55,101 nt of DNA, from the IMG/VR virus record IMGVR_UViG_3300023109_000032, positions 1 to 55,101 of that record, one strand, 5' to 3'. Source of the DNA: a virus (Duplodnaviria; Caudoviricetes). Both the position numbers and the translations under genes were made by a program. A model generated the notes under the pieces. That model worked only from the letters and a program-made list of their open reading frames with translations, did no database searches and was not told the DNA's origin. Positions 12,717 through 50,914 of this stretch are shown in pieces (the first letter of the stretch is position 1; the number at the start of each line of letters is the position of its first letter).

Positions 12717-12748
12717 TTTCAGAAACCTATATTGTTTGTTATATTTAA
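12717..12748 (+). promoter_or_regulatory. class I promoter TTCAGA-N15-TTATATTTA
   Basis: 21-nt offset shared with many other copies. Confidence 0.65.
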
Positions 12749-14635: not shown

Positions 14636-14726
14636 AATTGTTAATAACTTTTTGAAAATAATATGAAACTATAGTTCAATTCCCAAGAAATTGTATTATA
14701 TTTATAATATAATTAAATAACGGAAA
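14636..14726 (+). promoter_or_regulatory. repeated promoter cassette, copy 1
   Basis: AATTGTTAATAACTTTTTGAAAATAA...TATAGTTCA...TTATATTTATA...AACGGAAA-ATG. Confidence 0.8.
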
Positions 14727-15452
14727 ATGGAACATAAAATATTTGAAGTCGGTGGTTGTGTAAGGGACGAAATCTTAGGAGTTCATACAAAAGACATCGA
14801 CTTTACTTTTGTATTAGATAATACTGATATGACAGTAGAAGAAGGGTGGAACAAAATGTTATCTATCCTTGAATCTGAAGGATTCAAAATATTCTTAAAA
14901 ACACCAGACTGTTTTACTGTAAGAGCTATGTTTCCTAAAGGGCATGAGCATGAAGGTTTAGTTGCCGACTTTGTTATGTCTAGGAAAGAAGTAGGAGTTA
15001 TACCTGGAACAAGAAAACCTATATTAGAATTAGGAACTTTAGAGGATGACTTAATGAGAAGGGATTTTACTCTTAATGCCTTATGTAAAGATGAGAATGG
15101 TAATATCATAGATATGTTTAATGGTGTTATAGATTTAAATAATAGAATCCTTAGAACTCCATTACCTCCAATGAAAACTTTAATGGATGATCCTTTAAGA
15201 ATGATAAGAGGTTTAAGATTTTCCATAACCAAAGGTTTTACATTTGATGATGAATTATGGGAATGTATGCAAGAGCCAGGTTTGTTAAGAAAATTAGAAG
15301 ATGTAGTTTCTCAAGAAAGAATCAGAGAAGAAGTTACTAAAATGTTTAAGCATGATACTCTTAAGAGTTTAAATCTTTTAAGAACTATACCTGGATTAAT
15401 GGAAGTTATATTAAAAGATGGGATGTGGTTAATGCCAACAACTAAAAAATAA
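14727..15452 (+). CDS. tRNA nucleotidyltransferase (CCA-adding/poly(A) polymerase family)
   Basis: VGGCVRD, KDIDF, RRDFTLNAL, DDPLRMIRGLRF, SQERIREE. Confidence 0.9.
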   Translation: MEHKIFEVGGCVRDEILGVHTKDIDFTFVLDNTDMTVEEGWNKMLSILESEGFKIFLKTPDCFTVRAMFPKGHEHEGLVADFVMSRKEVGVIPGTRKPILELGTLEDDLMRRDFTLNALCKDENGNIIDMFNGVIDLNNRILRTPLPPMKTLMDDPLRMIRGLRFSITKGFTFDDELWECMQEPGLLRKLEDVVSQERIREEVTKMFKHDTLKSLNLLRTIPGLMEVILKDGMWLMPTTKK

Positions 15453-28764: not shown

Positions 28765-29079
28765 ATGCCAACAAAAAAGATTAGAACAGAATTTAAAGAA
28801 GCAAGTCTGAAGGAAGTAAGATATGCTATTGTAGAAAATTTCTTTTTTGGATTTAGTGGAGCTATCATTGTTCCGTTCATTGCACTAAGAATGGATGTAG
28901 CAGTACTTATAGGTTATATGATACATTACTTTTATATTAGTAAAGTTATTAACCGACCTAAATACACCACATCATTAGCTAAGTTTATCTTATTCCCTAT
29001 ACCAACAGCGCTTGGTGGATTCACTGGATATAAAGTAGCTTATTTTGTTTCACAATATTTAACAAATTACATACAATGA
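28765..29079 (+). CDS. multi-pass membrane protein
   Basis: Three hydrophobic segments. Confidence 0.65.
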   Translation: MPTKKIRTEFKEASLKEVRYAIVENFFFGFSGAIIVPFIALRMDVAVLIGYMIHYFYISKVINRPKYTTSLAKFILFPIPTALGGFTGYKVAYFVSQYLTNYIQ

Positions 29080-31890: not shown

Positions 31891-31991
31891 TAACTTTTTG
31901 AAAATAACAAGATTTTATAGTTCAGAATCACAAAAAAAGTATTATATTTATACTATAAATAATTAATTAAACAAACATAAAAACGGAAATT
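31882..31991 (+). promoter_or_regulatory. repeated promoter cassette, copy 3
   Basis: Same cassette; AAACGGAAATT-ATG. Confidence 0.8.
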
Positions 31992-32870
31992 ATGGCAAAA
32001 GTACAAAAAATCAAATCAAGGCTAACTCAGATTAGCAATGTCAAATATGAGAAAGGATTATTCGAGGCTCATAAAACAAACACACCATTAGATGGGTTAT
32101 TCTCAATTGATGGCGGAGTTCCAAAAGCAACTAACTGGATGGTAGTTGGAGATCCTGGTGTTGGTAAATCTACTGTAACACTAGATATTATTGCAAATGC
32201 AAAAAAGACTGGATCTAAAGTACTATTCATTTCAGCTGAGATGAACCAGGTGGATCTTTACCTTTATGTTAAAAGATATCCTAAGTTCGGAGAATTAGAT
32301 ATATTCTTTCCACAAGAAATAGAAGACAATGAGGATCCGAAACAAGTACTAGAAGAAATCTTATCTGAAGGGTATGATATTGTTTTAACCGACTCCTTTA
32401 TTGAATTACAAGAAACAATCAGAGAATCAGGTAGAATGACCAGAAACAGTTCTGAGAAATACTTATTGGATTTAATGTACCGACATAATCTAGGTGATAA
32501 CAAAGCTAAGAAGTTTACATCTTTCCTTAATATACAACAAGTAAACAAAGGTGGTACATTTGTCGGATCAAATAAACTGAAGCATATGACTACGGGTATG
32601 ATGGAGATAAGGTTCGTAGATGAAAGGGATCAGGAAGAAAGGTATGTTACTTTTTCTAAAAACCGTCGAGGTCATGTAGGAAAACAAATGTATTTTGATT
32701 TAGCTGCATCTGGAGATGTAACTTATGATACTGAAAGGTTCAAAAAAGCTGAAGGTCTAAAGCAATTAAAGAAAGCTGAAAAGGAAAAGATTAAAAAATC
32801 AGGTTTACAATTCGATGCACTATTCGGATTAGATAAAGACAAAGAAGAAAGTGAAACAACAAATAAATAA
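31992..32870 (+). CDS. RadA/Sms-like RecA-fold ATPase (no Zn finger or Lon domain)
   Basis: GDPGVGKST, LFISAEM, VLTDSF, GSNKLKHM, SKNRRG. Confidence 0.8.
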   Translation: MAKVQKIKSRLTQISNVKYEKGLFEAHKTNTPLDGLFSIDGGVPKATNWMVVGDPGVGKSTVTLDIIANAKKTGSKVLFISAEMNQVDLYLYVKRYPKFGELDIFFPQEIEDNEDPKQVLEEILSEGYDIVLTDSFIELQETIRESGRMTRNSSEKYLLDLMYRHNLGDNKAKKFTSFLNIQQVNKGGTFVGSNKLKHMTTGMMEIRFVDERDQEERYVTFSKNRRGHVGKQMYFDLAASGDVTYDTERFKKAEGLKQLKKAEKEKIKKSGLQFDALFGLDKDKEESETTNK

Positions 32871-32983
32871 ATTGTTAATAACTTTAGAAAAATAACTTAT
32901 AATTATAGTTCAGAAACAGTAAAAATTGATTATATTTATACTATATTAATTAAACAAATAACAAAAACAAAAAAGTACAAATT
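32870..32983 (+). promoter_or_regulatory. repeated promoter cassette, copy 4
   Basis: AATTGTTAATAACTTTAGAAAAATAAC...TATAGTTCAGA...TTATATTTATA. Confidence 0.8.
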
Positions 32984-34141
32984 ATGAAAGAATTAACTAC
33001 ATTATCGCCAACTGCATTCGCCGCTAGAAAAGCCGAAGCTGTTAGGAACGAAGTAATGAGAAAAGAAATCAGTTTATCTGAGTTCAATGTAATCGACAAT
33101 ACTCATATCGAGGTTGACGGAGTAAAAATTGAGTTAACACCCTTTGCATTCAAAAGGTTATTGGGTAGGCTAAGAATTCCTACAGCATTTGCTAAAAGGT
33201 TTGAAACAGGTTTTGGATCTGATGGACTAAAGCAATTAGTTCAAATGATGAAAACTATGAAATCATCTAAGAATGATCAAACTGTAACACTGTTGGTTGA
33301 TCCAAGAGCAAAGAAAGTTACTAACATTCTACCTGCAGGATATGCAAGTATTAGTAATGAAGCATTCATTGATTTTGCTGAAGGGTATATCAATCAATAT
33401 GGATTAGAAGTAAAAGACTTCGGATCAGATCCATCAGGTGGAGCTACAATTAACTGTGTATCGCCTAACGGTGTATTCTCAGTACCAGGAATGTCAGATG
33501 AAGTATTTAATACTGGTGTAACATTCAGAAATACTCCAACTCGTGGATTAGAAGTATCACCATATCTAAACCGATTGGTTTGTTCAAATGGAATGACATC
33601 TACATCATTCTCTGAAACATACGGTTTACATGAACTAACTGATAAATCAATCAGAGAATTCAATGATCATATGATTAGCATGGCATCTACAGGATTCCAA
33701 CCTGTAGGATTAGCTGAGAAAATTAAATCTGCAAATAACACTGATGCATCAATTGCTGAAGTACAACGCGCAATGTCCGCTATGTTATCAACTGACAAGA
33801 AAATTGATTATGAATACATGCAAAGGTATTTACCAATTAACCGAGTTATGAAAGCATACTCTGATATTGGAGCTGAGCCATCTACATTTACTACAAAGCA
33901 ATTACAAAATGCTAAATCAGGTTTATCAATCTGGGAAGTAGTAAACGGTATAACAAACTTTGCATCTAATGATCAAAAGTACAATATCGACGATCATAAA
34001 ACAGGTAATCTAATGGTATCAGCAGGAAACCTTTTAATGAAAAAGAATTTTGATACTGAAGCATTAATCCAATTTGATCCATTTGCAACAACTGGGTTAC
34101 TATCGGAAAATGAATCTGCACGTTTAATGGGACAAGCATAA
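32984..34141 (+). CDS. DUF932-like protein
   Basis: GVTFRN...RLVCSNGM signature; SIWEVVNGITNFAS C-terminal helix. Confidence 0.65.
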   Translation: MKELTTLSPTAFAARKAEAVRNEVMRKEISLSEFNVIDNTHIEVDGVKIELTPFAFKRLLGRLRIPTAFAKRFETGFGSDGLKQLVQMMKTMKSSKNDQTVTLLVDPRAKKVTNILPAGYASISNEAFIDFAEGYINQYGLEVKDFGSDPSGGATINCVSPNGVFSVPGMSDEVFNTGVTFRNTPTRGLEVSPYLNRLVCSNGMTSTSFSETYGLHELTDKSIREFNDHMISMASTGFQPVGLAEKIKSANNTDASIAEVQRAMSAMLSTDKKIDYEYMQRYLPINRVMKAYSDIGAEPSTFTTKQLQNAKSGLSIWEVVNGITNFASNDQKYNIDDHKTGNLMVSAGNLLMKKNFDTEALIQFDPFATTGLLSENESARLMGQA

Positions 34142-34241
34142 TAGCTAAACCCTACTAAAGGATGAGGTGGTAGTTTAGATTTCCGTTTACCTACTTCCAA
34201 CAATCCGCACAGGAGCTCTGTTAACTCAGGGCTCCTTTTTT
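34142..34241 (+). ncRNA. candidate 3'-UTR-derived small RNA
   Basis: Hairpin 34160-34206 whose loop carries ATTTCCGTT, complementary to the AACGGAAAT leader motif; intrinsic terminator follows. Confidence 0.4.
34211..34241 (+). terminator. intrinsic terminator
   Basis: AGGAGCTCTG-TTAACT-CAGGGCTCCT followed by a T-tract. Confidence 0.88.
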
Positions 34242-34278
34242 GCTTAACAATATATAATTAAATCAACTAAACTTTCTT

Positions 34279-35100
34279 ATGAAAAACTTACTTAAACTAA
34301 TCTGCATAGTAGTCTTATTTTTCTCAGTTAATAGCTGTGGTGTTCAATGGCAAATCAATTCATATAATCCAGACTATGTTGATGAGAATTACCAAATAGA
34401 AGAGATAAACACAGTAAGTCAATTAAGATGGAAACTTCAAACAGATTGGGTCTTTGCTGACAACTATTACAGATACTTACAAAGACAAAACTACAGCTTC
34501 TTTCATAATCAATTTTATCGCAATAGACTATATAGATATGGATGGCAAAGTCCACATAATTATTGGTTGAATTGGGAATGGAGCTACCACTTCGGTTATG
34601 GCTATAATAACATGTGGAATCAGTATCCTTATTATGGCAATTGGGGATCAAGCTATTGGTACTGGAATCAGTGGAATAACCCGTGGCAATATTCATATAC
34701 TTATGGTCCAAGAACTCAGTATTTAGGGAATGTATATGGCCGTAGATCTTCATATAGAAATCGCTCCTTTATTTCTAATTCTAATAGATCTAGATCCATC
34801 TTAGTCTCAGATGGCAGCACATCTGATAGTCGCACATATTTACCAAATACAGCGTCACCAATACAAAATCAAATTATCCGTAATAACAAACCACGTGTGC
34901 TACCAACCACAAAACCACCAGTAGTTACTAGACCGCCTGTAATAATCAACAAGCCAGTAAGGAACAATCCAATTCGTAATAACAACAGGCCAAGGATCAA
35001 TAGTTCCAGCTCTCGCCCTAATTTTAATCGACCAGTTAGTAGACCAAGCTCTCCAAAAACAACTACTAATTCATCAAGAAAAAGGAATAACCCTAGATAG
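34279..35100 (+). CDS. lipoprotein with W/Y/N-rich segment and R/S/N/P-rich disordered tail
   Basis: Lipobox-like FSVNS|C; aromatic low-complexity middle; basic tail. Confidence 0.7.
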   Translation: MKNLLKLICIVVLFFSVNSCGVQWQINSYNPDYVDENYQIEEINTVSQLRWKLQTDWVFADNYYRYLQRQNYSFFHNQFYRNRLYRYGWQSPHNYWLNWEWSYHFGYGYNNMWNQYPYYGNWGSSYWYWNQWNNPWQYSYTYGPRTQYLGNVYGRRSSYRNRSFISNSNRSRSILVSDGSTSDSRTYLPNTASPIQNQIIRNNKPRVLPTTKPPVVTRPPVIINKPVRNNPIRNNNRPRINSSSSRPNFNRPVSRPSSPKTTTNSSRKRNNPR

Positions 35101-35518
35101 TCTGAGACAACCTTATAGTAATCGCGTATACCAGTAATACCATTATATACGCATTGTACTCATATTCCTTTCGGTCTTATCAGTTAATCCGTTCCGGTAG
35201 TCCGATATGCTGAAACTGGCTCATGACTTACGGTTCCAGACAACTATGATATATACTAGCTGAAATGTACCTTTTCTATGGTCCTGTGATTAACTAATAG
35301 TCCCTCTAAGTACTCCTCTCAACTGTAAGTACCCATAAATAGCCTTTTTAGTGGTCAATGTCTAGTAGAGAAATCCAAATCCGCGGGCACATGCTAACAC
35401 CTGACCTAGGGGTCCAGAATCCTACCGAGCTGAATCTGTACTCTGAAGAATCACCTACATGTACTCATAGCACTATAATACTGTACTCCAACAGGAATAG
35501 CCCTGGTACTGGCGAAGC
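35101..35518. repeat. non-coding region with clustered GTAC(TC) repeats
   Basis: GTAC at 35156, 35267, 35310, 35329, 35438, 35461, 35483 and 35506. Confidence 0.55.
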
Positions 35519-35612
35519 AATTGTTAATAACTTTTTGAAAATAACTGCCTAAGTATGGCCCGAGTCGCGAAAAATTGATTATATTTATATTATAATTAAA
35601 AAACAAACTACT
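35519..35612 (+). promoter_or_regulatory. repeated promoter cassette, copy 5 (divergent middle)
   Basis: AATTGTTAATAACTTTTTGAAAATAAC...AAAAATTGATTATATTTATA. Confidence 0.8.
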
Positions 35613-35813
35613 ATGGCACAATTTAAATTAAAGCAATACATGTTTACCTTCGAAGGTGGAGGTTGGAATACCGTCTGGGCTAAAACTAAAGCCGGCGCCA
35701 TTAAGGCAGCAATGCTCGAGTACAAAGATTCGGATAGTCTGAATCCTCGAAAAGAATCGTTCCATGTAGCAACCGAGGCTGGGCTACAATCAGCAATGAG
35801 CCTCTTCTATTAA
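35613..35813 (+). CDS. hypothetical protein
   Basis: ORF behind the cassette. Confidence 0.7.
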   Translation: MAQFKLKQYMFTFEGGGWNTVWAKTKAGAIKAAMLEYKDSDSLNPRKESFHVATEAGLQSAMSLFY

Positions 35814-35836
35814 TCTAATAACTAAAAACGGAAATT

Positions 35837-36232
35837 ATGCAAAGTATTAAACAATTCAACAAGACAAAAATCATTCAACTAAGAAGTTCAATCAATGAGG
35901 CGCTAGACCAGGTAGCTAAAGAATATGGTATTACTATATCAGCTGGCAATTGCTCATTCTCAGGTAATGAGGCTAACTTCAAACTTAAGCTAAATACTAT
36001 TGGAGACAACGGTACTGTTATTACTCGCGAATCTCAGATGTGGGATCTATATAAAAGCAGAACAAACTGTGGCCACCTGAGTATTGGAGATAAGATAACA
36101 ATCCAAGGTAATACTTATACGCTAAGCGGTTACAATACCAGAGCTAGAAAGGCTCCGATTAACTTTACTGATAGTAGAGGTAATGGCTACAAATGTTCTA
36201 TCCAAATGTTGAACCAATACAACTCTAAATAA
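35837..36232 (+). CDS. hypothetical protein
   Basis: Preceded by AAACGGAAATT. Confidence 0.7.
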   Translation: MQSIKQFNKTKIIQLRSSINEALDQVAKEYGITISAGNCSFSGNEANFKLKLNTIGDNGTVITRESQMWDLYKSRTNCGHLSIGDKITIQGNTYTLSGYNTRARKAPINFTDSRGNGYKCSIQMLNQYNSK

Positions 36233-36233
36233 T

Positions 36234-36485
36234 ATGGACTTACAATATATTGAAAAGGAAGCTGTGCTGGATTTTATCAATGGAATGGATGAGGTTTCGA
36301 CCGACTCCATTCTAGATGATCCAAGTATACAACAACTACTAACTGGCAGTGTACCTCAACAAATCGAAGATCAACCTAATCCTCTAGGTACTATTGAAAG
36401 CTTTCTACAACTGTTTATAGCTAGAGAAGAATATGAAATTTGTGCCGATCTACTCAAGGCCGTTCCAGAGCTAGGTAAATACTAG
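36234..36485 (+). CDS. acidic protein with C-terminal UVR-like helix
   Basis: FIAREEYEICADLLK. Confidence 0.6.
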   Translation: MDLQYIEKEAVLDFINGMDEVSTDSILDDPSIQQLLTGSVPQQIEDQPNPLGTIESFLQLFIAREEYEICADLLKAVPELGKY

Positions 36486-37170
36486 GCAAATTATGATGTA
36501 AAAACACTCCTTTTTTGGGTGCAAATACCAGGTCCTCTAGACAGCCGCTCTAGAAGGCCTATATTTGTGTGTATTTTAGGCTATATATGGGCTATATTGG
36601 GCCTCTAGAAGCAGCTAATATCGTCAAAGTTCGTCTAGATGCACCCTATATAGCTCCCTACAGGCCGCTAGTAGCCCTATATTGCCGCTATATTCGTCTA
36701 TAATGGGTATATATGATCATTTGCCGCAACAGTCTTAGAAGTCACGTCCTGTATAGCCGATAGCACCAACCCTTGCTAGCTCACAAATACAACTACTAAA
36801 TCATCAACAACCCTAGTACGGTCTAGACAAGCTATAGGGCCCGCTAGACTACAGTTACCAGCAATATCCATAGTATAGCAACAACACGAGCAACTAGCTA
36901 TATGGTGGTCTAGTAGTGGTGGTAGTCTTGTGGCCATGATCAACTGCGTTGTGGTGGCAAGAGACAATCAAGAGTATCTTTCTCTTAAAGTGTATTTTTC
37001 TCTTAAGCATCTAGAGGTCTACTGGGCGCATGACTTTTACCTGTACAAAAATTTCCAGTCTAGAAAAAGAGCTAGTCCAGATATGTGAACCGATTACTAT
37101 GTCTATTCGGTTCATTTCTAGTCCAGAAAAAAACTAGCCCGAAAAAAATATGTGTAAAAAAAGTCTTATA
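36486..37170. other. long non-coding element with phased CTA repeats, CTAG cluster and hairpin (candidate ori/pac/genome end)
   Basis: No credible ORF; 17 CTAG in 36482-37137; CTA about every 10.6 bp over 36537-36709. Confidence 0.55.
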
Positions 37171-37174
37171 CTAC

Positions 37175-37206
37175 TTTCAGAGTTAAGGTACACTTGTTAT
37201 ATTTAA
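37175..37206 (+). promoter_or_regulatory. class I promoter
   Basis: TTTCAGA...GTTATATTTAA, 21-nt offset. Confidence 0.65.
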
Positions 37207-37388
37207 ATTAAACAATAACAATAAAAAAGAAACTATGTTAGAAGCCCTTACTCAAAACTCAACAGATGTGACATCAATCAAACTAGCCCTAGACAACATC
37301 GCGCTATCTCTGCGATTCGTTGTATACATTGGTCTGGTAGTATCCGTGTTGTACTGTGGTAATACTATTAATAACTGGAAGAAGTAAA

Positions 37389-37769
37389 ATGAAACTACTG
37401 TTCTGTAATACATGCGAGGATATCGTGAAACTAACAAAGACTACCAGTACCTGCCGTTGTGGCGCGACTGGTGGACATTATAAACAAGACGGACTTAACG
37501 CGGTCTATTACGGTCCTGCTATTCCACTCGGTTTTACTAATAGTACTTTTGTAGATGCTATTCGTAATCAACCTGAGTACGGGGATGGCTACCGTTATAC
37601 TAGTTTTGTTATTCCTAAGGTCTGTCCTACTATGGTCCATATAGATATTGATGATTATGAAGAAGTGGTTGATTACTATTGGGATGACGGGTTTGATGAT
37701 GTAATGGAAGAAGCTGAGTTACAGAAGAAACAAAAGAAATTGAAAAATGTATTTAAAGATGAGGATTAG
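37389..37769 (+). CDS. Cys-containing hypothetical protein
   Basis: Likely start at 37389; CNTC...CRCG. Confidence 0.65.
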   Translation: MKLLFCNTCEDIVKLTKTTSTCRCGATGGHYKQDGLNAVYYGPAIPLGFTNSTFVDAIRNQPEYGDGYRYTSFVIPKVCPTMVHIDIDDYEEVVDYYWDDGFDDVMEEAELQKKQKKLKNVFKDED

Positions 37770-37955
37770 AAAAGGAGTATTAAAGTTCTGTGAGAACTGT
37801 ATTTACGGGATAGGTTGGACTTTTATGGGCGGACTCTGTTGTTTAATTATGGGGGCAATCGGATTCGCGTTCTACCAATTGTTTCTGGAGGTGTTTAGTT
37901 AACTATGTGCTTCAGATGAAAAATGTGCGACGGATGTGCGACCGCCCTATAAAGA

Positions 37956-38153
37956 ATGCAAGTACTAATAATAAATAAAGAAATGAAAAAAATATTAAAG
38001 TTTATACAAAAAGAATTCTGGCTAACTTTTATGTTAGTCGGTGTAGGTCTATTGACTTGGGCAATAAGTCAAGGCGAAGGATTTGCAGGCCACATCCCAC
38101 TGGCTTGTTTGTTTATATTAGCAGGTGTGGGATTAGAATCAAATAAAAATTAA
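37956..38153 (+). CDS. small membrane protein
   Basis: Two TM segments. Confidence 0.55.
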   Translation: MQVLIINKEMKKILKFIQKEFWLTFMLVGVGLLTWAISQGEGFAGHIPLACLFILAGVGLESNKN

Positions 38154-41189: not shown

Positions 41190-41288
41190 AATTGTTAATA
41201 ACTTTTTGAAAATAACGTGAATTTATAGTTCAGAATCCGAAAAAATTGTTTATATTTATATTATAATAATTAAAACAAAAACGGAACT
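41190..41288 (+). promoter_or_regulatory. repeated promoter cassette, copy 6
   Basis: Near-identical to copy 8; AAACGGAACT-ATG. Confidence 0.85.
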
Positions 41289-41729
41289 ATGGCAACATTA
41301 AGAATCTTTACTCAGTACTACGAAAATTACTCGGACTCTCAAACTCCACACTGGAAACCAAAAGGTGGGCAAACATTCATCATCAAAGATATTGAAGGTG
41401 ATATGATTATGTACTGTGATAATCTAACAGAGGTTTGTACAAACCTTGTATCTGCAAAAAGTAATGAACATTACAAATATGAATACAGAGAACATGAAGT
41501 TGACTTTATGGGCGACGAGGAAATCTCTGTCACAGAACTTACCAATGAAATAAGGGATCAGTTTAACAATGAAGGGAAATATGCAACTAATGATATTCCT
41601 GGATTTGAAGGTACATTAGAAAACTTAAATAAACTCTGTGATGATATGATAAGTCATGCAAACAGTGCAGGTACTGTAGTTGAATGTTCTGCTGATTTAG
41701 ATAATGAATGGGCTAATGAATCAGAATAA
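41289..41729 (+). CDS. hypothetical protein
   Basis: TQYYENY...HWKPKGG motif. Confidence 0.7.
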   Translation: MATLRIFTQYYENYSDSQTPHWKPKGGQTFIIKDIEGDMIMYCDNLTEVCTNLVSAKSNEHYKYEYREHEVDFMGDEEISVTELTNEIRDQFNNEGKYATNDIPGFEGTLENLNKLCDDMISHANSAGTVVECSADLDNEWANESE

Positions 41730-45657: not shown

Positions 45658-46112
45658 TACTTTCCGTATTTTTGCTTAAGCTGATGTATCTTAGTTTGAT
45701 ATCCTAATTTTTTTATATCTATTTTGTCTATTGCAATTCTCAGTTGATAATATTCTACACCAAAAGGATCTTCTCTATCTTGTGCAGCTCTGAACCTTTC
45801 AATATTTTGTTGTTCTCTTCTCTTTAATCTTTCAGCAGTTGAATTTGGATTAAATTCATGTTTCTCAGCTTCAACAATTCCATCTTTACCATCCATAGTA
45901 TCATGTACTGAATTTAGATTTTTAACTGAGTCTGAAATTTTAGAATACATCCAAGCATCTAATTGTTGACCCTGTGACATTCTATCTTTAATCATATCAG
46001 CATAATCACCAATTCTTTCTAAGTCAGTTGATGCCATGCTATTAAGATTGTCAATAGTTTTATCATTTTCATTAAAGGATTCAAATCCTGGTATTAAATC
46101 TATACTTGCCAT
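45657..46112 (-). CDS. putative internal head protein
   Basis: Leader LIPGFESFNE|N; LDAWMYSKIS motif. Confidence 0.55.
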   Translation of the reverse strand: MASIDLIPGFESFNENDKTIDNLNSMASTDLERIGDYADMIKDRMSQGQQLDAWMYSKISDSVKNLNSVHDTMDGKDGIVEAEKHEFNPNSTAERLKRREQQNIERFRAAQDREDPFGVEYYQLRIAIDKIDIKKLGYQTKIHQLKQKYGK

Positions 46113-49491: not shown

Positions 49492-49588
49492 AATTGTTAA
49501 TAACTTTTTGAAAATAACGTGAATTTATAGTTCAGAACCGAGAAAATTGTATTATATTTATATTATAATAAATTAAACAAAACGGAAT
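49492..49588 (+). promoter_or_regulatory. repeated promoter cassette, copy 8
   Basis: Full cassette; AAACGGAAT-ATG. Confidence 0.85.
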
Positions 49589-50914
49589 ATGACTGAACTA
49601 ACAAACAACTTCGATTATCTACAATCTTTCATTAATGAAATGAACGATTCATCTTCAGGTAATCATAAAATTGCAACCATTAAAAAGTATGCTGATAACT
49701 CAGAGGAAAACGAGGATAGGGAATTTCTACAAAAGATTTTCTACTATACTTATAATCCTTACTTTAAGTATAATGTTACATCCAAGAATTGCAAAAAGAA
49801 TTTTGATTTACTAGGTCACCCTAATACTTATGGTAGTATTTTTACTTTATTGGATGATTTAAGAAATAGAGTTTGTACTGGTCATACTGCTATTGCAAAT
49901 GTTAACAGATTTATTTTAGAAAACAAACAATACGAAACTCTTATCTACAGCATTATTGATAGAGACCTTAAAATGGGTGCTAATACAACATCAATTAATA
50001 AAGCAGTACACTCAGATTTAATTCCAACATTTAAGGTTGCATTAGCAAATCCTTATAATGTAAAAAGAGTAGATTTTCAAAGTGGAGATTGGTACGGTTC
50101 CAGAAAATTAGATGGAGTTCGATGTATTTGCCGAAAGGAAATGAATACAGTAACATTTTATTCTAGAAGTGGTAAAGAATTTTTAACATTAGATAATTTA
50201 GCAAATGAAATTTCTAAGATAGGTGGTGATTTTATCCTAGATGGAGAAATCTGTATGGTTGATAAAGACGGTAATGAAGATTTCCAAGGAATTATGAAAC
50301 AGATTAGAAAAAAGGATCATCAAATAGATAATCCTAAATTCTTTGTATTTGATTATTTAACTTTAGAGGAATTTGATAATAAGGTTGGAACTAAGCCACT
50401 TACTGAAAGGCTTTCAAATGGATATGATTCCCTCCCAGAAAATATTAATTCAGATATGTTAGAATTCTTACCACAGGAACAATTAACAACAGAGGAACAA
50501 TTTACTGAAATGGCAAAGGATGCTGAAGAGGCAGGATTTGAAGGAATCATGGTTAGAAAGAATGTAGGCTATGAAGGTAAAAGAAGCCATAATCTACTAA
50601 AGGTTAAAAAATTCCATGATGCAGAATATACTGTCCTAGATGCAATCAATGGAAATATCCGATGGACAGAAAACGGTAAACAAATAGAAAGAGAATGTTT
50701 AAGCAGTATTACAATTGAACATAAAGGTTGTAAAGTAAATGTAGGATCAGGATTTTCTAAAGAACAGAGAGAAATGTACTATGAATCTCCACAAGATATT
50801 ATTGGTAAGACTGTAACGATTCAGTATTTCGAGGAAAGTAAAAATCAAAACGGAGGATATAGTCTAAGATTTCCTGTATTAAAACATGTTTATGCTAATG
50901 GAAGGGATTGCTAA
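49589..50914 (+). CDS. ATP-dependent DNA ligase
   Basis: RKLDGVR (motif I), LDGEI, FVFD, EGIMVR, LLKVK, VGSGFS, SLRFP. Confidence 0.95.
   Translation: MTELTNNFDYLQSFINEMNDSSSGNHKIATIKKYADNSEENEDREFLQKIFYYTYNPYFKYNVTSKNCKKNFDLLGHPNTYGSIFTLLDDLRNRVCTGHTAIANVNRFILENKQYETLIYSIIDRDLKMGANTTSINKAVHSDLIPTFKVALANPYNVKRVDFQSGDWYGSRKLDGVRCICRKEMNTVTFYSRSGKEFLTLDNLANEISKIGGDFILDGEICMVDKDGNEDFQGIMKQIRKKDHQIDNPKFFVFDYLTLEEFDNKVGTKPLTERLSNGYDSLPENINSDMLEFLPQEQLTTEEQFTEMAKDAEEAGFEGIMVRKNVGYEGKRSHNLLKVKKFHDAEYTVLDAINGNIRWTENGKQIERECLSSITIEHKGCKVNVGSGFSKEQREMYYESPQDIIGKTVTIQYFEESKNQNGGYSLRFPVLKHVYANGRDC

Follow-up and report, generated by a model that had tools for sequence, protein, structure and literature searches.

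The window analysed here (55,101 nucleotides) is the whole of its viral record, a 55-kb phage fragment that encodes a thymidylate synthase, an FtsH-like protease, a DNA ligase, glycosyltransferases, a tail-fibre-like protein and four tRNAs, the last being the only matches in an Rfam scan of the window at gathering score. Contigs of relatives reach 181 kb at a CheckV completeness of 65%, and the genome of this phage is therefore probably large. A blastn search against cultured and deposited phages gave no match and a tblastn search gave a single one, at 23%; none of the contig identifiers sought is present in the abstract and main text of the moraphage paper (PMC12619734), and no link to it is claimed.

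The gene of central interest here, which encodes a protein of 385 aa, was also found on four short contigs binned in MAGs. Since three of the four MAG labels are Flavobacteriia, Bacteroidota and Cryomorphaceae (the remaining one is Rhodospirillaceae), the host of this marine phage is likely a member of the Bacteroidota. A 16S rRNA gene was not found in three of the MAGs carrying the 385-aa gene. Two genomes belonging to the same family as the Cryomorphaceae-labelled MAG G004, in which a near-identical contig of the phage was binned, supplied 16S genes instead (L113 and L114); the 3' tail of these genes reads ...GGCTGGAATATCTCTTTTTTT, without the anti-Shine-Dalgarno word CCTCC. The phage leaders agree with this, being A-rich and entirely without Shine-Dalgarno (SD) sequences, an SD-like tetramer lying upstream of 0 of the 54 window ORFs of at least 100 aa against a background of 9%. 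Judged from these sequences, SD pairing is evidently not used by the host.

The 385-aa gene lies downstream of a RecA/KaiC-like ATPase gene (31992-32870); it and features that follow it are listed below with their window coordinates.

32984 to 34141, + strand: 385-aa gene (phrog_1362, function unknown), the 3'UTR of which bears the element
34160 to 34206, + strand: anti-leader hairpin domain, from the predicted fold and covariation
34179 to 34188, + strand: seed ATTTCCGTTT, with the core TCCGTTT invariant across relatives
34211 to 34242, + strand: strong intrinsic terminator with a T run, its 10-bp stem (6 G-C pairs) capped by a loop of 6 nt
39850, 40805, 49326 and 49403: four tRNAs

A preliminary description of this DNA had called the upstream gene DUF932-like, a label that found no support: no DUF932 match was found in the protein with Pfam at E<=1, the sole Pfam match being DNAG_N (E=0.072), and PHROGs assigns the protein to phrog_1362. 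A profile search of the protein against PDB sequences found nothing. A minus-strand 69-aa ORF with a TTG start (33994-34203, -) overlaps the gene. The gene past the terminator (34279-35100) begins with a lipoprotein-like signal, MKNLLKLICIVVLFFSVNSCG, has a conserved box of the ATATATAAT type upstream, and lies inside a stretch of higher G+C content (0.37-0.39; 34001-38000) in which the local GC skew is negative.

Stop codon (34139-41), hairpin (34160-34206) and terminator (34211-34242) thus follow one another in the layout of a 3'UTR-derived sRNA. The minimum free energy fold of the hairpin comprises the helices GGAU 34160-63/AUCC 34203-06, GG 34166-67/CC 34197-98 and GGUAG 34169-73/CUACU 34191-95, with the arms where the preliminary description had placed them, and is capped by a predicted apical loop of 17 nt (34174-34190); the terminator stem-loop occupies 34211-34236. 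The claim that the motif lies unpaired in the loop stands in part: it is enclosed at the top of the hairpin, but a weak inner helix, UAGAU/GUUUA with two G-U pairs, hides some of it in the predicted fold, and the unpaired probability of the core in the window is 0.54. An alternative pairing of CTAAAC with GTTTAG, also put forward earlier, exists in the window, but L001 and other close relatives lack CTAAAC. As had been said, the minus strand has no ATG downstream of the motif.

By itself the upstream hairpin is not unusually stable (z -0.31, with 58 of 200 shuffles folding equally well), and the z of -2.98 for the region is due to the terminator. Neither G-U pairs nor hairpin stability assigned the strand, stability favouring the + strand in 17 domains and the - strand in 25; the + strand was assigned from gene orientation and the terminator T run. 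When 34050-34330 was compared with Rfam at E<=10, the only match was that of the terminator to CsrB, at 15.9 bits against a gathering score of 71, and the element matches no Rfam family.

The seed is, exactly as first reported, the perfect reverse complement of AAACGGAAAT, which occurs at 31981-31990 and 35826-35835, and the match to the four remaining leaders was found likewise, with 8-9 nt shared and AACGGAA at 14719, 31422, 41280 and 49581. Over both strands there are 3 exact 10-mer matches where 0.16 are expected, a number reached by 1 of 100 shuffles. Taken alone, a match within a single genome would be weak evidence, and it is the relatives, which provide strong comparative evidence, that carry it beyond chance.

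Loop conservation and stem turnover among relatives

The 385-aa gene was recovered from viral, metagenome and genome contigs at 112 loci, some of them duplicates, with 64-99% amino acid identity. Four scans (two alignment-based ones of viral contigs, one of metagenome contigs and one of genome contigs) for more distant relatives, whose core might differ, gave none below 64% identity. Counting the window, all 84 loci first collected with the stop codon (60 distinct sequences, some loci duplicating one contig) had the motif [A/T]TCCGTTT within 140 nt past it, as did 8 of 8 loci added later, which gives 92 of 92; the motif was kept down to 64% protein identity, where the remaining UTR is unalignable. 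Each of the 52 distinct complete modules has a terminator past its hairpin; besides these, three loci were without a run of five T and three were cut by contig ends.

The helix that encloses the motif is always present and is lineage-specific, with at least ten unrelated stems, among them GTAG/CTAC, CTAAG/CTTAG, CTAG/CTAG, CCTCAAC/GTTGAGG and GGGTGGTA/TACCACCC. The stem TCAAGGT/ACCTTGA occurs together with the double variant TTAAGGT/ACCTTAA, and CCAGG/CCTGG, CCTGG/CCAGG and CCGGG/CCCGG show three pair types at one position. Stem covariation was significant: among 20 clade-A sequences, 86% of cells were paired as compared with 73% after shuffling, the observed value being reached by 0 of 500 shuffles, and slid partners gave 36-56%; both sides had changed in 13 of 21 pairs, including 4 of the 5 pairs of the loop-closing helix. 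Invariant columns of the clade-A alignment were confined almost entirely to the loop and the T run. For the core, the predicted probability of being unpaired averaged 0.67 against 0.43 for the rest, with values of 0.80 in clade B and about 1.0 in clade D.

Loss of the loop where the leader motif persists, the outcome that the preliminary description had named as telling against its proposal, was looked for, and the loop was found to be kept in all 92 loci while stems and UTR changed around it. These comparisons support the loop motif as a selected element presented in single-stranded form. A hairpin that served merely to stabilise the 3' end or to assist the terminator, with its leader match arising by chance, would need no invariant loop, whereas here the core is invariant in 92/92 loci as the stems turn over. 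Although the 10-mer match within the single genome is only modestly unlikely, and the scan of duplex energies described below does not discriminate, such a stabiliser appears to us most improbable.

Conserved loops on variable stems are also the classic signature of a hairpin recognised by a protein, and the element might be a nut/boxB-like antitermination site or the operator of a regulator, the complementarity to leaders being incidental. In phage lambda the nutR boxB, whose short N-bound loop does not vary in size, lies before tR1, and the order of gene, conserved-loop hairpin and terminator resembles that of cro-nutR-tR1. In contrast to boxB, however, the loop measures from 8 to 35 nt across lineages, holds one to three copies of the motif and is complementary to leaders. 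The motif TTTCCG is repeated three times in tandem in L005:2290-2330 (= L022) and twice in L087:1500-1530, in each case within a long G+C-rich stem. Such variation in loop size, together with the tandem motifs, fits a pairing seed better than a loop shaped for a protein. A protein site would also leave unexplained why 7 nt, and locally 10-14 nt, are complementary to a conserved tag linked to start codons, and why the flanks co-vary. We therefore regard it as unlikely, and return to it below where transcript cover is considered.

In the clade with 85-90% identity a second anti-leader module was found directly past the stop codon of the ATPase gene, consisting of CATAAATTTCCGTTTATG and its own terminator. 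This module, seen at L076:5740-5900, L049:4345-4500, L052:2100-2260 and 10 other loci, has a long GGGGTGG...CCACCCC hairpin followed by a T run and is absent from the window at 32871-32983. Its complement fits the ATPase leader over 11 nt and, past a 1-nt bulge, also the ATG. The anti-leader of this second module is nearly stemless, which again argues against a protein site.

The leader tag and its complementarity to the loop

Six window genes (14727, 31432, 31992, 35837, 41289 and 49589) have AACGGAA 1-3 nt ahead of their ATG. These tagged starts, and two of the promoter-like boxes, are as follows.

14718 to 14729, + strand: tag AACGGAAA and ATG of a poly(A) polymerase/CCA-adding family gene, 8-nt complement to the loop
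31421 to 31434, + strand: tag AAACGGAAA and ATG of a 152-aa gene, 9-nt complement
31943 to 31966, + strand: promoter-like box TTATATTTATACTATAA ahead of the ATPase leader, from a family of about 10 boxes
31981 to 31994, + strand: tag AAACGGAAAT and ATG of the RecA/KaiC-like ATPase gene, 10-nt complement
32931 to 32954, + strand: promoter-like box of the same family as that at 31943, upstream of the 385-aa gene
35826 to 35839, + strand: tag AAACGGAAAT and ATG of a 131-aa gene, 10-nt complement, without a promoter box directly upstream
41279 to 41291, + strand: tag AAACGGAA and ATG of a 146-aa gene, 8-nt complement
49580 to 49591, + strand: tag AAACGGAA and ATG of the DNA ligase gene, 8-nt complement

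Of 11 AACGGA[AT] sites on the + strand, 6 precede by 0-5 nt an ATG that opens an ORF of at least 100 aa, a location that by chance takes up 0.6% of positions. The gene tagged at 14727 (14727-15452) matches PF01743 of the poly(A) polymerase/CCA-adding family at E=9.7e-18, in a phage with four tRNAs. Words of the ACGGAA type were also seen just before two minus-strand ATGs, at 45660-45669 (-) and 28865-28874 (-), the ORFs concerned being of 141 aa (45657-45232) and 133 aa (28880-28479); in relatives the site at 28865-28874 lies inside a + strand open frame and the minus-strand ATG is not kept.

The promoter-like boxes form a family, TTGATTATATTTATAnTATAAT, with members at 12740, 14251, 14697, 31400, 31943, 32931, 35580, 37198, 41251, 43118 and 49553, all on the + strand. 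Tag and box are separated by 22-39 nt, and the gene at 35837 is tagged without a box of its own. As the distance to the ATG is 1-3 nt while that to the box is variable, or the box is absent, the tag goes with the start codon and not with the promoter. The AACGGAA tag follows only about half of the promoter-like boxes, and the 385-aa gene's own leader, from the box at 32931, bears no tag.

This placement bears on the possibility that AAACGGAAA/TTTCCGTTT is a duplex-DNA site of one phage regulator, read in either orientation, with RNA playing no role. The identical 9-mer is indeed present in both orientations near transcription signals, and the genome-wide counts of the 8-mer stay near those of the reversed control (14 vs 13, 16 vs 12 and 15 vs 9); the signal is therefore positional rather than one of over-representation, as would be the case for operator sites. 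However, the spacing of the tag is fixed relative to the ATG and not to the promoter, internal genes without boxes are tagged (35826; L018:5249), and the inverted copy always sits within a covarying helix, for which a duplex-DNA site has no need. We thus give a DNA site very little credence. The four other + strand copies of TCCGTTT in contigs G001 and G002 (181 kb and 140 kb) each fall within an open frame, so that the intergenic anti-tag is unique in these contigs.

A further candidate, in which the tag would enhance initiation by pairing with rRNA and the loop would mimic rRNA, was weakly rejected, with the identity of the host assumed. The words TCCGTT, TTCCGT and CCGTTT are absent from the 16S rRNA of the two candidate-host-family genomes, L113 and L114.

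In every clade the tag stands ahead of homologous genes, and its invariant core, AAACGGA, is the exact reverse complement of TCCGTTT, which is the invariant core of the loop. We infer that for two independently conserved 7-mers to be exact complements by chance would have a probability of about 4^-7 per given pair. The longest contiguous match of a loop to the leaders of its own lineage ranges from 7 to 14 nt. In L018-L021 and L023, where the leaders read TAAACGGATA (most of them TAAACGGATATG), the loop reads UAUCCGUUUA (TTTATCCGTTTA) and the match is 10 nt; the altered loop of L049 and L052 matches its leaders over 12-14 nt, and that of L022 over 12 nt.

Covariation of seed and leader, which the preliminary description had suggested as a check, was found to a modest degree in the flanks. 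In a permutation over 20 loop types, the mean match of a loop to its own leaders was 9.68 as compared with 9.08 across lineages (p=0.0024) and the mean of maxima 10.25 as compared with 9.76 (p=0.033), p-values that are optimistic because the loop types are interrelated. Clade D (L014, L024 and L082-L085) is an exception, in that its loop has retained TTCCG although ACGGAT is the reading of most of its leaders, leaving a match of 8 nt, shorter than the cross-lineage matches.

A ranking of targets by pairing energy, also suggested earlier with IntaRNA and carried out here with RNAduplex, failed to separate start regions from random windows in this AT-rich genome. Duplexes of -9 kcal/mol or lower were predicted for 15 of 82 start regions and for 411 of 2000 random windows, shuffled loops giving an average of 10, and the tagged start regions make up 7 of the 8 best-ranked ones.

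Transcript cover and possible action in cis

Sixteen runs that contain part of the window are labelled metatranscriptomic, ten of them being on record as RNA. Four runs were examined as Logan contigs, which give neither transcript ends nor strand. Contig cover in these four runs was about 14-27 over 33470-34138, 0-8 over 34139-34305 and about 0-2 over the next gene, which fits an expressed gene with an effective terminator. An RNA contig from a close relative runs from 33500 to 34216, through the hairpin and into the terminator, while those of the other three runs (X1-X3) end at 34089-34159, before the hairpin; gaps in contig cover, there or over 34279-35100, do not prove absence. In run X4, the promoter-box region at about 35594 and the ATPase leader at 31979 lie side by side on a contig from a relative, separated by 12 other letters, which suggests that gene order varies between strains and that promoter-leader cassettes serve as recombination junctions.

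The fall in cover past the stop codon indicates that the terminator matters, so that control of read-through by a protein bound at the hairpin, as considered above, would be meaningful. In a second alternative, the 3'UTR loop would fold onto the tagged leader of its own transcript and limit translation or change stability in cis only, with no regulon in trans. Pairing between the 5' and 3'UTR is described for icaR of Staphylococcus aureus (PMC3868564) and hbs of B. subtilis (PMC5737220), where an anti-SD motif in the 3'UTR pairs with the SD of the same mRNA. In the window no terminator is predicted from the ATPase box at 31943 as far as 34211, and a bicistronic RNA would hold both tag and anti-tag; the ATPase leader, tied with that at 35826, has the longest match in the window. 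Among relatives, the 385-aa gene of clade B has a tagged leader and a promoter box to itself, and the ATPase gene of the 85-90% clade has its own anti-tag and terminator, with the 11-nt leader match extended by the ATG past the bulge. With such monocistronic layouts, clade B and the second module would be open to cis action as well.

In contrast, however, the leader that the 385-aa gene of the window would have from its box at 32931 is untagged, and the distant tagged genes (14727, 41289 and 49589) keep their tag without a local anti-tag. The gap between the ATPase and 385-aa genes (32830-32862) was not bridged by RNA contigs in 4 of 4 runs, a weak point against a bicistronic RNA since contigs prove no absence. 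As the 385-aa leader is untagged and several tagged genes lie far away, trans action is favoured in the window, and we consider it unlikely that the element acts in cis alone.

Proposed mode of action and relation to known systems

The reading that we favour, and hold to be somewhat the more probable, is that the 3'UTR of the 385-aa gene yields an anti-leader RNA that pairs with the tagged start regions and represses their translation. The 3'UTR would form a hairpin displaying UUUCCGUUU in single-stranded form, followed by the intrinsic terminator of the mRNA itself. The loop would pair over 7-14 nt, through the core UCCGUUU with AAACGGA, with the tag 1-3 nt upstream of the AUG, and the predicted targets include the RecA/KaiC-like ATPase, the 152-aa and 131-aa proteins, the CCA-adding-type enzyme and the DNA ligase. 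A host without SD pairing would need open, A-rich leaders for initiation. Pairing across positions -12 to -1 would then keep the 30S subunit from binding, and the tagged messages would be shut down as the 385-aa transcript accumulates. The acting form may be the full mRNA, a 3' fragment guarded by two hairpins, or, where a transcript carries the tag, the same molecule in cis. Pairing in vivo, repression, a short RNA species, early expression and a role in timing are all putative.

The preliminary description had already read the element as a trans-acting sRNA derived from the 3'UTR, a putative species of about 80-100 nt made from an early operon and acting as a negative-feedback timer. The comparisons support that reading in part. 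In its favour are the conserved motif in a single-stranded loop and the conserved tag linked to start codons, while the ranking by energy does not discriminate and the covariation between seed and leaders is modest.

Enterobacterial 3'UTRs reportedly give rise to base-pairing sRNAs such as CpxQ, SroC, DapZ and GlnZ. The element resembles these in lying between a stop codon and the intrinsic terminator of the parental gene, in its predicted targeting of start regions and in its conserved single-stranded seed, which at 92/92 loci is conserved beyond the surrounding UTR, as is characteristic of 3'UTR-derived sRNAs. It differs from them in being a phage element, with its seed in a hairpin loop rather than in a linear stretch and with the phage's own tagged genes as its predicted targets. 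To our knowledge, Hfq is not expected in a Bacteroidota host. SRNAs of Bacteroides with loop seeds, GibS and others, are said to mask start regions and to be chromosomal and independently transcribed; they are alike in pairing with start regions in a phylum without classical use of SD sequences, and no homology is implied. With the icaR and hbs contacts the element shares a 3'UTR motif complementary to a ribosome-binding region, but here none of the 54 leaders has an SD sequence, a private tag abuts the AUG instead, and several unlinked genes are tagged.

Phages offer other parallels. The c4 antisense RNA of phages P1 and P7 pairs through its loops beside a ribosome-binding site and belongs to the same transcription unit as its target. 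In that system the antisense RNA lies upstream of the target and serves immunity, whereas the present element is at a 3' end, seems to address a multi-gene set and belongs to a large phage of the lytic type. In phage T4, early mRNAs are shut off post-transcriptionally by the translational repressor RegA and the endoribonuclease RegB; a short start-region motif shared by a gene set to be silenced is common to both cases, but the effectors are proteins in T4 and would be RNA here. Very few base-pairing RNAs through which lytic-type phages regulate genes of their own are known to us, and we know of none for Bacteroidota phages. Literature searches gave, among the matches listed and outside supplements, no phage 3'UTR sRNA of this kind and no phage paper for the motif strings. 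On the sequence comparisons made here, we rate the element as a candidate private tag/anti-tag pair of an uncultured and widespread marine phage lineage, akin in kind to 3'UTR-derived pairing sRNAs and to contacts of the icaR type.

A broader proposal, which we put forward tentatively and think possible though not probable, is that this lineage of large marine phages, infecting hosts without SD recognition, has its own tag/anti-tag control of translation. A tag of 7-10 nt at the AUG (AAACGGAA) would mark a regulon of replication and nucleotide metabolism, and one or two 3'UTR hairpins, sometimes with two or three tandem seeds, would titrate the tag as the transcript bearing them accumulates and so time the shut-off, as an RNA-only counterpart of T4 RegA/RegB.

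With over 60 distinct variants in nature, the element is a new conserved RNA motif, usable for RNA family libraries and for annotating this uncultured lineage. If the proposed pairing is true, it would provide a compact and portable tag/anti-tag pair for the engineering of Flavobacteria, and would show that sets of genes can be addressed post-transcriptionally in a host that lacks Shine-Dalgarno recognition.
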